In this document: positions 3,011 to 57,080 of the stretch, one piece after another
Position numbering within the stretch: the first letter of the stretch is position 1
Layout of the letters: each line of letters opens with the position of its first letter
NCBI GenBank assembly: GCA_951406725.2
Contig: OX597823.1
Coordinates: forward strand, 51,212,001 to 51,276,000
Source: Octopus vulgaris
Lineage: Eukaryota
DNA length: 64,000 bases
Direction: 5' to 3'
The notes under the pieces: model-generated
Seen by the model: the letters and a program-made list of their open reading frames with translations, nothing else
Told to the model about the DNA's origin: nothing
Databases searched by the model: none
Translations under genes and position numbers: made by a program

Positions 3011-3088
3011 TTATAAATATTTATAAATATATATATATATAGTGAATTGAAGAAATGGAGTTGAACGAAGATTGAACAGAAATCGTTT

Positions 3089-3181
3089 TATTTCATTCTA
3101 CACGTGTTTCGAAAGGCACAATTTACCAAATTCCGATTGAATAATGAGACCATATTGTGTCTTTCTCTTCAGGAAGAAATA
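3089..3181 (-). ncRNA. Type I hammerhead ribozyme motif (left arm)
   Basis: Reverse complement of the 3515-3607 motif; core intact. Confidence 0.85.
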
Positions 3182-3514
3182 GGAAATCCGTTGGAAAAAA
3201 CAAAAACAGAACAGAGGCGGAGCAAAACAAATCGAACAAGGCTCCTAAGAGCCCATGGCCAAACTGTTTATCAGTGTATGTTGAGAACGGATGGTGAGTG
3301 CGTTGAAGATTTTAACGGGTCAGGCAGCGGTCATTCCTGTGGGTGCCCTCACCCACAGGAATGACCGCTGCCTGACCCGTTAAAATCTTCAACGCACCTA
3401 CCACCCGTTCTCAACATACACTGATAAACAGTTTGGCCATGGGCTCTTAGGAGCCTAGTTCGATTTGTTTTGCTCCGCCTCTGTTCTTGTTTTTGTTTTT
3501 TCCAACGGATTTCC

Positions 3515-3607
3515 TATTTCTTCCTGAAGAGAAAGACACAATATGGTCTCATTATTCAATCGGAATTTGGTAAATTGTGCCTTTCGAAACACGTGTAGAA
3601 TGAAATA
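3515..3607 (+). ncRNA. Type I minimal hammerhead ribozyme motif (right arm)
   Basis: Stem I TATTTC-TTC / GAA-T-GAAATA; core CTGAAGA (3524-3530); stem II GAAAGACACAAT / ATTGTGCCTTTC; GAAAC-ACGT-GTA with palindromic stem III and predicted cleavage after GUA at 3597. Confidence 0.85.
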
Positions 3608-3925
3608 AAACGATTTCTGTTCAATCTTCGTTCAACTCCATTTCTTCAATTCACTAATAATATTAAAATTCAATTATCCGCACCAACGCACGGTTGCAAC
3701 ACCATATGGTTGTACCTCCAACCGTGCTGTCTTCTGCTGTGATTTTTGCTACCAAGGTATCGGTTAAACTTTTGATTAATCTGCTACAAGATTATTCATC
3801 TTTCTATTTCACATAATATATATATATATATATATATATATATATAGAGAGAGAGAGAGAGAGAAAGAGATAGATAGATAGATAGATAGATAGATAGATA
3901 GATAGATAGATAGATAGATATAGAT

Positions 3926-4150
3926 CTTTTTACTCTTTTTACTTGTTTCAGTCAATTGACTGTGGCCATGCTGAAGCACCACCTTTGGTCGAGCAAATCG
4001 ACCCCAGGACTTATTCTTTGTAAGCCTAGTACTTATCGGTCTTTTTTGCGGAACCGCTTAGTTACGGGGACGTAAACACACCACCATCGGTTGTTAGGTG
4101 ATGTGTTGGGGGGACAAACTCAGACACACAAGCATACACACACACACACA
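3926..4150 (-). mobile_element. SINE family A, 3' half
   Basis: TTTTACTTGTTTCAGTCAATTGACTGTGGCCATGCTGAAGCACC is the reverse complement of the family A tail. Confidence 0.9.
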
Positions 4151-4259
4151 CACATATATATATATATATATATTATACAGGCAATAGTTTAGCAGAAACA
4201 TTAGTACGTCGTAACTATTATCTACTGCGATTGATTCTTCTCGATCTAGTTTTTAGTTT

Positions 4260-4490
4260 ATCTTTGTCTCTACATTTACACCTCCCACACTGCTCCACAA
4301 ACGGTGTTGGTTTGTTTACACCCCCTAAAGATCAGTCAATTTATTCGGTGAAAGAGAGCAGTAGACTAAGTATCAGATTTAAAAGTAATTTGTGGAGAGG
4401 ATTTTTTTTTTTATTAAAGCTTTGAAGATATTGTTCTGTCATTGCCACACTCCAATGCTATGTTTGAAACGTAAAACAATAAAAGAATAA
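4260..4490 (+). mobile_element. SINE family A, degenerate 3' half
   Basis: GGTGTTGGTTTGTTTACACCCCC...TTCGGTGAAAGAGAGCAGTAGACTAAGTATCAG. Confidence 0.55.
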
Positions 4491-4608
4491 AATAATACAC
4501 TCGTATTCGTGAGACTACGAAAGAAGAGCAAGAGACCTTGTTTTTTTCTGATATATCTATTTTCTGTGATTTATCTGTATTTATAGCTATGAAATAATAT
4601 AATTACTA

Positions 4609-53427: not shown

Positions 53428-53610
53428 TATTGGTTTCAAATGCTGGAACAAGGTCAGCAATTGCAAGGACTAAAATGATTAAATCGACCTAAGTGATCAG
53501 CTGTACTTACTTCGACTTTTGCAGGATTTGAACTCAGCGCTTCAGGACGGACGAAACATCGCTAAGCATTTTTCCCGGCGTGCTAACGATTTCGCCAGTT
53601 CGTTGCCTTA
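53428..53610 (-). mobile_element. SINE family B with internal deletion
   Basis: GATTTGAACTCAGCG...GCTAAGCATTTTTCCCGGCGTGCTAACGATTTCGCCAGTTCG. Confidence 0.8.
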
Positions 53611-54169
53611 AATTTCATATTAATATTATACTGACTTTTGCATTCATTTGTTATATATTTCATATTACAGTATTCTACAAGTATACTATTAAAACAAGTC
53701 ATATAAATGAGAAATTTCATGAAAGAGTCCTTTGGAGTTACGAAAATGGAAAAAATTATAATATTCTTAGTTTAATTATGGCTTTAATGAGTTTAGCTTA
53801 TATATAGAAACTATTTTAGACAAGAGTATATACGAGAGTATATAAAGCTGTAAATTTGTAACGGGTATTCTGAAAACAGCTGACGGAGTGACGACCGTTC
53901 CCTGCACAGTTATGGACTGCCCTTTGGTAAGGCATAGCATCCGTGCAGTTAAGCCAGGAGACTGAAGCATGGTGGATTGTGAAGATGCAGCGAAAGAGCT
54001 CAGCTGAGACAACGACGCTTCTTACATCGATGGTGAGCGGTGGAATCTTGGAAGATCACAAAACTCTACCAAAAGAGTAACTGCAACGCTTCAATAGAGT
54101 TGGCGCTCATGGCTGTGTAATCGGCTAAAGGAAGATTCTCTATGACACGAGTTCCCAATTCAAATTTAT

Positions 54170-55330
54170 GAGAATCGTTAGCATAAAGGAAAAACTAAAT
54201 TCGCGACATTTTTTCGGCTCTTATGCTCTGAGTTGCATACCTGTTAAGGTCAACTTTGTCTTTCATCCTTCCCTGTCGGTAAGATAGGGATACCTGTCAA
54301 AACTAGATCGTTGTAATAGACTTGTGTCTCGCTTTGAAGTTGCTGGTCATAAGCCAAATTATAAATTTGTTGTTGTTATTATTATTATTATTATTATTAT
54401 TATTATTATTGTTGTTGTTATCATTATCATTATTATTATTATTATTATTATTATTATTATTATTATTATTATTATTATTATTATTACTATTATTATTATT
54501 CCTGTAGGCGCAGGAGTGGCTGTGTGGTAATTAGTTTGCTTGTGAGTGGATTTGGTAGACAGAAACTGAAAGAAGCCCGTCGTATATATGATTGTTTGTG
54601 TGTGTGTGTGTGTGCGTGTGTGTGTGCGTGTGTGTGTGCGTGCGTGCGTGTGTGTGTGTGTGTGCTTGTGGGTCTGTGTTTGTCACCTCACCATCGATTG
54701 ACAACTGATGTTGGTACGTACTCGTAACTTAGCGGTTCGCCAAAACAGAACGATAGAATCAATACTAGGCTTACAAAGTCTTCGGGTCGATTTGTTCGTC
54801 TAAAGGCAGTGCTCCACCATGGCCGCAGTCAAAAGACTGAAACAAGTAAAAGAATAAATAATTTTAGGCGACGAACTGGCAGAATCGTTAGCACGCTGGA
54901 CGTTCTGTGTTCAAATTCCGCCGAGGTCGACTTTGACTTTCGTGTTTTTCGGGGGTTCGATAAATGAAGAACCAGTGAAACACTAGGGTTGATGCAATCG
55001 ACAAAACTCCACTCCTCCAAAATTCCAGGCCTTTTGCCTTTAAATGAAAGGGTTATTAGTATTATTAAGGCGGCGAGCTGTCAGAATCGTTAGTGTGCCT
55101 GACAAAAAGCTTAGCAGTATTTTTCTCTCCATTATTTTCTCTGTTCAAATGTGTAGGTGTGTGAGTGCACGCGCGCATATATGTTTGTTCCTACAACTGC
55201 TGGACCACCAGTGTTGGTCTCTCTTTATTTCCCCAAAGCAAAACATATAAGTACAGTGATCAATTTGTTCAATTAAACCCTTAGAGGTGGTGTCCTAAGA
55301 TGGCTGCAGTCCAAAGACTGAAGCAAATGA
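54170..55330 (+). mobile_element. SINE cluster: B (54170-54365), (ATT)n, A (54507-54855), B (54866-55050), B head (55068-55150), A tail (55180-55330)
   Basis: Family motifs as above, all on the plus strand. Confidence 0.8.
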
Positions 55331-55491
55331 AATGCATATACACTCACACATACACACATACATGCACACTCACATACATACATACATACATACATACATA
55401 CATACATACATACATACATACATGCATATATTTATACACATACAAACATACATATATATATATATAATATATATGTGTATATACACATATG

Positions 55492-55800
55492 TGGAGGCGC
55501 AATGGCCCAGTGGTTAGGGCAGCGGACTCACGGTTGTAGGATCGCGGTTTCGATTCCCAGACCGGGCGTTGTGAGTGTTTATTGAACGAAAGCACCTAAA
55601 GCTCCACGATGCTCCGGCAGTGGGTGGTGGCGATCCCTGCTGTACTCTTTCGCCGCAACTTTCACTCTTTCTTCTGTTGGCCTGCTCGCTTAGCCAGCGG
55701 GGTGGCGTCATTTGAAGACTAAAACAATGCGAAGCGCATTGTGACCAGCGATGTGTAGCAACATCTGATAGCCTGGTCGGCCACGGTGATCACGGTGATA
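55492..55800 (+). mobile_element. tRNA-derived SINE with family C-like head and a distinct body/tail (type 4)
   Basis: TGGCCCAGTGGTTAGG (A box), GGTTTCGATTCCC (B box), tail ending in CACGGTGAT x2. Confidence 0.85.
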
Positions 55801-56269
55801 TATACGTATGTAGCCATGCATGACTGTACGTACGCACGTATACATAAGTGCGTGGGTGTGAGTGCGCTCACAGTAAATTGCAACGTAAAAATGAAGATTT
55901 ATAGACAATAATTTTTTCCTGCTCGTATATTTACAAACACCCATTGCAGAAGAATTATTTCAGTAATACTTTTACTTCAAATTTTGGATCAAAAGCTCTA
56001 AATGTCTGTTGAAAATATGGTTCCTAAATCAATTTAAAGTTAACTACAATTCTAAATTCTTTTGTGTGTCATACATTTTCAGAATACTTTCAAAAATTAG
56101 AGGAATATTAAATTTCAAAGAAAGTACTTCTTTGAACAATTATGCGTAGCATAATTATTTTCTTCGGGCTAAGAATTCAAAAGAAAATCTATATATTACA
56201 GAAAGTTATGACAGAATAAAAAGCAGTAAGACGAAGTTGTAAAGAAGACAACTTTAACGTATATAAAAT

Positions 56270-56910
56270 ATGTATATATACAGGGAGAGAGAGAGAGAGA
56301 GAGAGAGAGAGAGAGAGAGAGAGAGAGAGAGAGAGAGGTGGAAAGAGAGAAACAGAGAGATAGATATATATATATGTATATATATATGCTTATATATATA
56401 TAAATATATACACATATATATATGTATATTTATATATATATTTGCATACATATATATGTAGATATAAATATATACATATATACATGCATATATATACATG
56501 CATATATATGCATATATATATATATATATATATATATATAATGTATGCACTTATATATGTATATATACAGAAATATAAATACATATGTATATATATATAA
56601 ATATTTATCTATATACATTTATGTATACACATATATACATATATATATGCATATATATATACATATGCATACATATATATAAGTATATATACATATATAC
56701 ACACACACATATATATATATATATATGATATATATATATATGCATATATATATATATATATATATATATATATATGCATGTATACATATATACACATACC
56801 TACATATATATGAATATATATGCATGCACACACAGACACAAACATATTCACACACATAACACAGACACACATATATATACACACACATACATATATATGT
56901 ACACATACAT
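56270..56910. repeat. (AG)n and long degenerate TA/CA tract
   Basis: Read directly. Confidence 0.95.
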
Positions 56911-57080
56911 ATGTGTCTGGGGGAGTCATTTTTGTTTTATTGCCGTGTTAATTAGCACACACGCCAGTTCGATTTCCACTCATTTATATATTTTTTCCTA
57001 AAATTTTCGTTGCTTCTTGCCACCTCTTTAATAGTCGTTGACTATGCGTTATCAGAGCCGCATTCTTTTTGTTTGTGGGC
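56910..57080 (-). mobile_element. pLTR-like fragment (family of 5844-6369) with degenerate hammerhead at 56998-57034
   Basis: Minus strand CTA-TTAAAGA-G-GTGGC AAGAA GCAAC-GAAA ATTT-TAG. Confidence 0.65.

Follow-up and report, generated by a model that had tools for sequence, protein, structure and literature searches.

The window analysed here, a 64,000-nt stretch of the Octopus vulgaris genome (contig OX597823.1), holds 5 intact and 8 decayed hammerhead-type motifs. The features are as follows.

3042..3345, minus strand: inverted 5'-truncated copy, left arm of the 3.5 kb fold-back (304 nt); its 3' end meets (TA)n at 3029-3041
3099..3172, minus strand: type I hammerhead with intact core and palindromic 4-bp helix III, found with the descriptors
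3346..3812, plus strand: right arm (467 nt), with a 4-nt loop, 5' segment, hammerhead, and extension, delimited with family contigs, the exact 3' end being placed from the (AT)n junction
3524..3597, plus strand: type I hammerhead with intact core, found with the descriptors
3655-3812, plus strand: 158-nt extension of the right arm only, with no counterpart in the left arm; (AT)n follows at 3816
5783..6098, minus strand: left arm of the 6.1 kb fold-back; decayed motif 6099-6069 with one core change
5783-5843, minus strand: 61-nt left-arm extension, which repeats 5971-6036
6113..6369, plus strand: right arm of the 6.1 kb fold-back, its motif more decayed than the left one
8100..8160, minus strand: decayed hammerhead-like motif, read by sequence, beside (TTA)n at 8209-8266
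8890..8925, plus strand: hammerhead-like motif, 3' half only, from sequence and alignment
11871..12055, minus strand: short element flanked by two (TA)n arrays, decayed core at ~11930-11960
12647..12713, plus strand: type I hammerhead whose core is changed at one position (U3), with palindromic helix III, found by descriptor
12886..13107, plus strand: short element between TA-rich arrays, with an intact minimal hammerhead at 12969-12995
17232..17330, minus strand: 13.0 kb family copy with a change at C3; its 3' end meets (TA)n
44411..44790, both strands: older fold-back in the 6.1/57.0 kb family, arms head-to-head, with a decayed motif at ~44686-44720(+)
45100..45481, both strands: 45.3 kb fold-back, arms alike at 144 of 170 columns, spacer of ~50 nt
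56915..57110, minus strand: single decayed copy of the 6.1 kb family, from alignment

Hammerhead motifs and their decay

A minimal type I descriptor, combining the exact core (CUGANGA...GAAA...UH) with a stem I of at least 3 bp and a stem II of at least 4 bp, returned five intact motifs at three loci: 3524-3597(+) and 3172-3099(-) at 3.1/3.5 kb, 12969-12995(+) at 13.0 kb, and 45327-45418(+) and 45262-45166(-) at 45.2/45.3 kb. In dinucleotide shuffles of 500-nt blocks, the mean was 0.14 and the maximum 1, and 0 of 50 shuffles reached five, a comparison suggested in an earlier, sequence-only reading of this DNA. A stricter descriptor, which required helix III to be paired, gave four matches against a mean of 0.125 and a maximum of 1 (40 shuffles). 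Allowing it one core change gave six against a shuffle mean of 1.6 and a maximum of 4, bringing in 12647-12713(+) and a match at 52.5 kb that is likely due to chance. With four unbroken stem I pairs required, no match was found in the window. The 12.7 kb and 6.1 kb(-) motifs carry one core change each, and those at 6.1(+), 44.7, 57.0, 8.1, 8.9, 11.9, and 17.3 kb match none of the descriptors. As written, most copies could not cleave. Six hammerhead families had been proposed; three of them keep an intact core and the 12.7 kb family is one change away, but the rest are decayed.

Hammerhead models were absent among the 150 Rfam matches listed of 431 in the window and from all 12 matches on 3045-3700. 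The window matches were dominated by miRNA models on microsatellites. Compared with shuffles, monomer folding energy was better for 6.1(-) (z -4.5), and the other four motifs gave z values of 0.1 to -1.05. No tandem hammerhead array was found in the window.

The 6.1, 44.7, and 57.0 kb copies align as a single putative hammerhead family, as previously proposed. A second proposed grouping, of 8.9, 11.9, 13.0, and 17.3 kb, held in part: the 13.0 and 17.3 kb copies are alike at 79 of 93 columns, the former extending 45 nt (13063-13107) beyond the end of the latter, but 11.9 and 13.0 kb have only the ribozyme core in common (34/47), and the 8.9 kb motif, which lacks the first box, aligns only around the core. 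The 8.1 kb motif has kept stem II and GAAAC, with G5 changed and stem I missing. A perfect 8-nt palindrome runs from A15.1 to U16.1 at 3.1/3.5, 12.7, and 45.2(-) kb; the motifs at 45.3(+) and 13.0 kb lack it. A palindromic stem III had been ascribed to most families; the AAAUUU and AACGUU words cited for it include core A residues and are present in some copies only.

Fold-backs, 3' ends, and microsatellite targets

Three clear fold-backs (3042-3654, 5844-6369, and ~45100-45481) and one older one were found, and all four are head-to-head, with the minus-strand arm on the left, as had been claimed for the motifs of every inverted pair, an agreement that is weak on its own (two-sided p 0.125). 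At 3.3 kb, the arms differ over ~305 nt by 4 mismatches and 1 indel and stop at most 4 nt apart at 3.35 kb; both terminate in TTCAC ahead of TA-rich DNA, and TA microhomology is present at the 3041/3655 junction. The 6.1 kb arms stop within ~14 nt, with 5 mismatches plus gaps, and the 45.3 kb arms, each with an intact core, show 18 mismatches. The arms of the older fold-back, 44411-44526(-) and 44564-44715(+), align with a score of 74 against a maximum of 37 in 200 shuffles. This fold-back at 44.4-44.7 kb had been missed in the sequence-only reading. Between 8.64 and 9.03 kb, a candidate head-to-head pair did not hold up: its best alignment is only 23 columns of low complexity. Nor is folding back routine, as had been suggested: pairs make up 3 of the 11 loci, with 44.7 kb in addition, and the other 7 lack an inverted partner.

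Centre-to-core distances are ~7, 33, 141, and 176 nt, a variation as expected from random 5' truncation, and since a single family has both 7 and 141 nt, we rejected a fixed centre. In three families, one arm or copy carries a 3' extension (158, 61, and 45 nt, the last based on two copies). The 3' ends meet TA-rich arrays at 3041, 3816, 11870, 13108, 17231, and 45484, the last being the (ATA)n at the right end of the 45.3 kb fold-back. No target-site duplication was seen; together with the varying centres and the different family positions at which arms end, this led us to reject a MITE or fold-back DNA transposon. At 8 of the 11 loci, which are those picked by the sequence-only reading, a (TA)5+ or (AAT)4+ array lies within 200 nt, vs 29% of background positions (p 0.004); for SINE-like blocks, the count is 16 of 39 (Mann-Whitney p 0.009 against the hammerhead loci). 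The proposed microsatellite association is borne out for these 8 loci; the 6.1 kb pair, an exception, sits ~1 kb from the nearest such array.

Contigs of the 3.5 kb family span 3342-3810, and the family was of high copy in 3 of 4 runs (738, 1,476, and 862 distinct contigs on 486 nt). Overlapping contigs tile 3350-3436, 3401-3487, 3454-3540, and 3488-3783, and one contig equals 3488-3783 with zero differences. Contig depth drops toward 3342-3400, and loose ends show other copies running on upstream of 3343-3346 with non-inverted sequence. The centre at 3325-3341 has no covering contig in any of the four runs, which we do not count as absence or polymorphism; the junction itself comes from the window only. 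In one contig guessed to be RNA, the strand switches at 3350, 4 nt off the centre of the window copy. No ORF lies between the 5' part and the ribozyme: the longest stop-free sense frame of 3346-3812 is 56 aa, the longest ATG frame 35 aa, and a 99-aa antisense frame had no credible look-alike (best atlas score 0.75, which is noise). The exact ribozyme word had no match in metagenome or viral contigs. Helix III of 3524-3597(+) is predicted to form in a dimer.

Resemblance to Penelope-like elements and retrozymes

The sequence-only reading had found no ORF of a Penelope-like element (PLE), and a Pfam search agrees: among 246 selected stop-free frames of at least 48 aa, a set in which badly broken ORFs might be missed, only RVT_1 at 57365-58633 passed, GIY-YIG was found in 0 of 246, and no frame with RT and GIY-YIG is linked to any family in the window, as would also be expected of copies that are truncated or non-autonomous. 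Three PLE traits are present, namely a head-to-head inverted 5'-truncated copy (4/4), a one-sided 3' extension, and an AT-rich or (TA)n target. PLEs are described as having inverted 5'-truncated copies, a tail of 30-40 bp, and a bias toward (TA)n (PMC8557442), and their inverted copies are mostly head-to-head, with junction palindromes interpreted as self-priming (PMC3846280). The canonical EN+ PLE insertion unit (PMC3846280, PMC8557442) consists of a pLTR, an adjacent inverted 5'-truncated copy, and an optional tail. The window loci resemble it in the head-to-head copy, the palindromic junction, one arm with a longer 3' end, the AT-rich or microsatellite target, and a type I hammerhead close to the 3' end, but differ in that they carry no ORF, show no target-site duplication, and have extensions of 45-158 nt, of which those of 158 and 61 nt exceed the published tail. 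The hammerhead loci are likely to be short insertions of several PLE families, and the earlier reading of them as hammerhead-bearing retroelement pieces of several families, inverted 5' of the ribozyme, stands.

Individual motifs point the same way. Dual minimal hammerheads on opposite strands, 100-700 bp apart, and a palindromic loop 3 have been described for PLEs (PMC4209133), and the window shows opposite-strand pairs at such distances. The 13.0 kb motif equals the minimal metazoan form in its unpaired base after A9, in G10.1-C11.1, and in having no stable helix III; nothing substantial differs (PMC4209133). Hydra-clade PLE hammerheads have a 4-bp AC../..GT helix III, as at 3.5, 12.7, and 45.2 kb, and the clade has the (TA)n preference in common with the window loci; its member Penelope-13_HM carries an outward-facing pair, with the minus motif at nt 102 and the plus motif at nt 2944 (PMC8557442). 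Unlike in Hydra-clade PLEs, loop II is long in the window (31-54 nt between outer stem pairs), loop III has no extra base, and there is no ORF. By eye, the ends of the 3.5 kb family resemble nt 1-140 of Hydra-1_Obim, an octopus PLE, at its non-coding 5' end, with an 11-nt word in common; the two best blocks, chosen post hoc, have a chance of 0.0008-0.07 by base composition, and the Hydra-1_Obim ribozyme and 3' end do not match the window motifs. Four window motif words had no match in the PMC8557442 supplement, and five searched in paper texts gave two matches only, both by chance.

Non-LTR retrozymes, proposed to be PLE-derived and PLE-mobilised (PMC7229834; bioRxiv 10.64898/2026.07.22.740005), are like the 3.5 kb unit protein-free and of high copy, with a type I hammerhead. 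They form head-to-tail tandems of 170-400 nt and circular RNAs, whereas the window has monomers and inverted pairs with a putative unit of ~480 nt; among the papers searched, none described retrozymes as head-to-head. The 3.5 kb family is likely a non-autonomous, protein-free unit of ~480 bp. The label "non-autonomous" had been applied to all families; the contigs and the by-eye comparison favor it for this one, but the others are more simply read as 5'-truncated PLE ends. Since outward-facing pairs, a palindromic helix III, and (TA)n targets have all been reported for PLEs, the view of these loci as an under-described system is not upheld: the fold-back architecture is mostly ordinary, and the families may already be catalogued in the O. 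vulgaris repeat library (PMC13282606) or the supplements of 10.64898/2026.07.22.740005.

Proposed mechanism and competing explanations

We consider it probable (roughly 0.8) that the loci are insertions made by the RT and GIY-YIG endonuclease of several PLE families, mostly 5'-truncated hammerhead-bearing terminal repeats, with the 3.5 kb family probably the protein-free ~480 bp unit. Such insertions could arise as follows: (i) the endonuclease would nick AT-rich or (TA)n DNA; (ii) the RT would start at either of two sites downstream of the ribozyme, giving one arm a longer 3' end (158, 61, or 45 nt); (iii) reverse transcription would halt 5' of the ribozyme, at a point that varies; and (iv) the antisense cDNA end would sometimes snap back, copy itself, and jump to the other target end, for which we cite the TA microhomology at 3041/3655. 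Most copies would decay afterwards. Snap-back would force a head-to-head pair, with ribozymes facing outward without any selection on them. Two RT start sites, and cleavage of both strands at AT-rich DNA, have been reported (PMC11167929), and tandem and inverted structures and microsatellite bias are named as open questions of PLE integration (PMC8557442).

Whether the 3.5 kb family is a lineage of its own is a separate matter. We hold tentatively, somewhat short of even odds, that it is a very abundant transcribed ~480-nt retrozyme-like unit that arose from a Hydra-clade PLE by loss of the ORF and keeps the full PLE integration signature (a (TA)n target, a snap-back copy placed head-to-head, and a choice of two 3' ends). 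Its strongest competitor, which we doubt but take seriously, is that every family, this one included, consists of nothing more than 5'-truncated pseudo-LTRs of autonomous PLEs and that no non-autonomous lineage exists. The fall in depth toward 3342-3400 fits 5' truncation, PLE insertions are described as mostly truncated, and Octopus vulgaris is reported to have 31 PLE families with recent activity. However, the contigs tile 3350-3783 with no ORF and no stop-free sense frame above 56 aa, and by eye the 5' segment is like a PLE 5' UTR, not an endonuclease end.

Twin priming departs from our preferred explanation in step (iv) alone: a dimeric enzyme would prime cDNA synthesis on two RNAs at the two target ends, and the 3' ends of the resulting cDNAs would then be linked. 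PAc, a predicted dimer, cleaves and extends both strands (PMC11167929), the TTCAC end of both 3.3 kb arms is as two start sites might give, and the 45.3 kb pair has a ~50-nt spacer; yet independent truncations should differ by more than the at most 4 nt and ~14 nt seen at 3.35 and 6.1 kb, and we regard twin priming as unlikely. We consider improbable a distinct non-autonomous system in which RNA is cut by the ribozyme and the mobile or functional entity is the fold-back itself. Intact cores lie in both arms at 3.3 and 45.3 kb, three unrelated families have an 8-nt helix III palindrome, and the RNA-guessed contig switches strand at 3350, but centres vary within one family, 7 of the 11 loci lack an inverted partner, a fold-back transcript is predicted to be 83-98% base-paired and so to bury the ribozyme, and PAc insertion in vitro did not require cleavage (PMC11167929). 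Assembly or long-read fold-back artefacts, which the uncovered 3325-3341 favors weakly, being absence of cover, are very improbable given arms that carry mismatches at 3.3, 6.1, and 45.3 kb and end at different family positions.

For PLE biology, the finding as written changes little, the architecture being known. Young short fold-backs such as 3042-3812 are good material for distinguishing snap-back from twin priming. The retrozyme-PLE link has been argued from shared features, co-occurrence, and phylogeny (PMC7229834; bioRxiv 10.64898/2026.07.22.740005), and the junctions of the 480-nt unit, if that unit is confirmed, would connect a named PLE clade with a retrozyme-like element. If the retrozyme-like reading is true, this would be direct junction-level evidence of PLE enzymes moving retrozyme-like RNAs, and the 3.5 kb family would be a steady source of long double-stranded RNA.

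Hammerhead motifs and their surroundings

The sequence-only reading had placed hammerhead motifs of at least six unrelated families at 11 loci, most of them in or beside (TA)n or (AAT)n arrays. With a minimal type I hammerhead descriptor and an exact core, five motifs were found in the window against a mean of 0.14 in 50 block shuffles of its sequence, none of which reached five. When a paired helix III was required, four motifs were found (0.125 on average in 40 shuffles), and allowing this descriptor one core change gave six matches (shuffle mean 1.6, maximum 4), the additions being 12647-12713(+) and one other that is likely due to chance.

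Hammerhead-type motifs in the window
3524-3597, plus strand: type I hammerhead, exact core (minimal descriptor)
3172-3099, minus strand: type I hammerhead, exact core (minimal descriptor)
12969-12995, plus strand: type I hammerhead, exact core (minimal descriptor)
45327-45418, plus strand: type I hammerhead, exact core (minimal descriptor)
45262-45166, minus strand: type I hammerhead, exact core (minimal descriptor)
12647-12713, plus strand: hammerhead-like, one core change (descriptor with paired helix III)
6099-6069, minus strand: hammerhead-like, one core change (minimal descriptor with the change allowed)

Five exact cores, far above the shuffles, and two motifs with one core change bear out part of that reading, but the seven other named motifs were rejected by every descriptor and are decayed or half motifs. 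No hammerhead appears among the 150 of 431 Rfam matches listed for the whole window, nor among the 12 matches for 3045-3700. Monomer folding energy was unremarkable for four of five motifs, the exception being 6099-6069(-). Cofolding predicted intermolecular pairing via an 8-nt palindrome at 3.5, 12.7, and 45.2 kb, which would be the dimer form described for the ribozymes of Penelope-like elements (PLEs). Another short element, 8644-8800(-), abuts (TA)n at its 3' end and has a CUGAUGA box at 8760 without a matching GAAA, with the half motif GCUCGAAA upstream; it is possibly a further decayed PLE end.

The window is AT-rich (G+C, 22107/64000), and short tandem repeats mask 9596 nt (~15%). At 8 of the 11 loci, themselves the earlier reader's own choice, (TA)5+ or (AAT)4+ lies within 200 nt; the background rate at unmasked positions is 29% (p 0.004), and the same proximity was seen for 16/39 SINE-like blocks. 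TA-rich arrays directly adjoin element 3' ends at six junctions. The proposed microsatellite link describes most loci but not the 6.1 kb pair, whose nearest such array is ~1 kb away. Many SINE-like repeats in the window are multi-copy and presumably resemble octopus SINEs; two copies at 59246-59682, 90% alike and separated by 83 nt, are inverted relative to each other and might fold into a long hairpin. Elsewhere lie a direct duplication of ~468 nt (21369-21835 and 23633-24079; 91% alike, 2.26 kb apart) and a tandem repeat at 32446-32880 (period ~150-156 nt), within which no hammerhead was found.

Fold-backs and their arm ends

A masked self-search gave three fold-backs, 3042-3654, 5844-6369, and ~45100-45481, and a more sensitive alignment added a fourth, older one of the 6.1/57.0 kb family at 44.41-44.72 kb (score 74 vs a maximum of 37 among 200 shuffles). 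All four are head-to-head, as had been claimed for every inverted pair (two-sided p 0.125 on that count alone), but 7 of the 11 loci have no inverted partner. Centre-to-core distances of ~176, 7, 33, and 141 nt indicate that this distance is not fixed, even inside one family.

The arms have unequal 3' ends: the right arm is 158 nt longer in the 3.3 kb fold-back and the left arm carries 61 extra nt at 6.1 kb, while the 13.0 kb copy extends 45 nt past the end of the related 17.3 kb copy. In the 3.5 kb family the word TTCAC, followed by TA-rich DNA, closes each of the two alternative 3' ends (3648-3654 and 3806-3812) and may mark a shared reverse transcription (RT) start signal. Within the 6.1 kb family (5783-6036) sequence is repeated directly at a spacing of ~188 nt, and the right arm ends exactly at the would-be start of the second unit.

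The 3.5 kb family in outside sequencing runs

Part of 3040-3700 is present in 20 of the 24 runs listed, from 10 studies; run X20, a wastewater metatranscriptome with 0.24 of the words of 3040-3700, was counted as no evidence of anything. Contigs of four runs were placed on 3325-3810 (486 nt), with 738, 1476, and 862 distinct contigs in three of them (two presumed to be DNA, the third of unspecified type) and 27 in a run presumed to be RNA, which shows that the family is high-copy and variable, contig counts not being copy number. Since cover runs beyond 3654 to the end of 3325-3810 and one contig is identical to 3488-3783, the right copy is ~467 nt long and stops where the (AT)n array begins (3816). 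Loose contig ends before 3343-3346 indicate that other copies extend upstream into non-inverted sequence, so the centre of the 3.35 kb fold-back is a truncation point; no contig of the four runs on 3325-3810 spans it. In one contig of presumed RNA origin the strand switches at a joint between 3350 and 3766 (short side, 35 letters), and 3350-3783 is tiled by overlapping contigs.

The window's copy holds no sense frame >56 aa. By eye, an 11-mer in the family's upstream loose end is identical to nt 62-72 of Hydra-1_Obim, an octopus PLE of the Hydra clade, and 3363-3381, 3398-3409, and 3788-3797 match its nt 85-103 (15/19), 114-125 (9/12), and 46-55 (9/10). This block order would fit a circular permutation without an ORF (5' UTR-like part, 95 nt, ribozyme, tail, element start; ~483 nt). 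Because the two best blocks have a chance of 0.0008-0.07 and were picked after the fact, the likeness is a lead rather than demonstrated homology.

Coding frames and likeness to Penelope-like integration

Among 246 selected stop-free frames of >=48 aa (mostly-microsatellite or multi-copy frames left out), one passed the Pfam cut-off, RVT_1 at 57365-58633 (E 1.4e-17), and none matched GIY-YIG. We take the motifs of the former to be those of a CR1/L2-type LINE, not a PLE, in keeping with the earlier statement that no PLE ORF was found. This open frame lies in a 5'-truncated LINE, 57401-58700(+). At its 3' end (58665-58701) the LINE agrees at 33/38 with the terminus of the abundant SINE-like repeat, which suggests a putative LINE-SINE pair.

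Several features have precedents in the literature. PMC8557442 describes PLE insertions that show a (TA)n bias, carry a tail of 30-40 bp, and have an inverted 5'-truncated copy adjoining their 5' end; Penelope-13_HM with its minus-strand motif left and plus-strand motif right; Hydra-clade ribozymes with a 4-bp helix III, a style shared with the 3.5, 12.7, and 45.2 kb motifs; and an octopus representative of that clade whose insertion site is (TA)n. Head-to-head is given as the most frequent PLE arrangement, with junction palindromes interpreted as self-priming on an antisense template (PMC3846280). PMC4209133 reports many families per genome, with most motifs occurring singly and being related to truncated PLEs; it also describes opposite-strand hammerhead pairs at distances of 100-700 bp, a palindromic loop 3, and weak activity in the dimer form. 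In PMC11167929 both strands are shown to be cut in AT-rich DNA, RT starts at two sites, which explains the tail, and ribozyme cleavage is not required in vitro. Protein-free hammerhead repeats are regarded as likely non-autonomous PLE derivatives (PMC7229834; bioRxiv 10.64898/2026.07.22.740005), and 31 recently active PLE families were counted in O. vulgaris (PMC13282606). A search confined to paper texts found neither the window's motif words nor any text joining 'retrozyme' and 'head-to-head'.

In the most likely course, reverse transcription would be primed by the target at (TA)n, would begin at one of two start sites, and would be truncated 5' to a varying extent; a part of the events would add snap-back, in which the antisense cDNA end would copy itself before jumping to the other target end. 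Twin priming, the joining of two cDNAs primed from both target ends, forces the outward orientation just as snap-back does; we favour snap-back because the arms stop at near-equal points (at 3.35 kb, within 4 nt of each other). Transcription across a fold-back would give RNA with a predicted 83-98% of its bases paired and hence a silent ribozyme; a dead product is therefore a likelier reading of the fold-back form than a functional unit. As no enzyme is linked to any family, membership of named PLE families is at most putative; the likeness to PLEs is one of process, and we put at about 0.8 the probability that the insertions in this window work like PLE integration.
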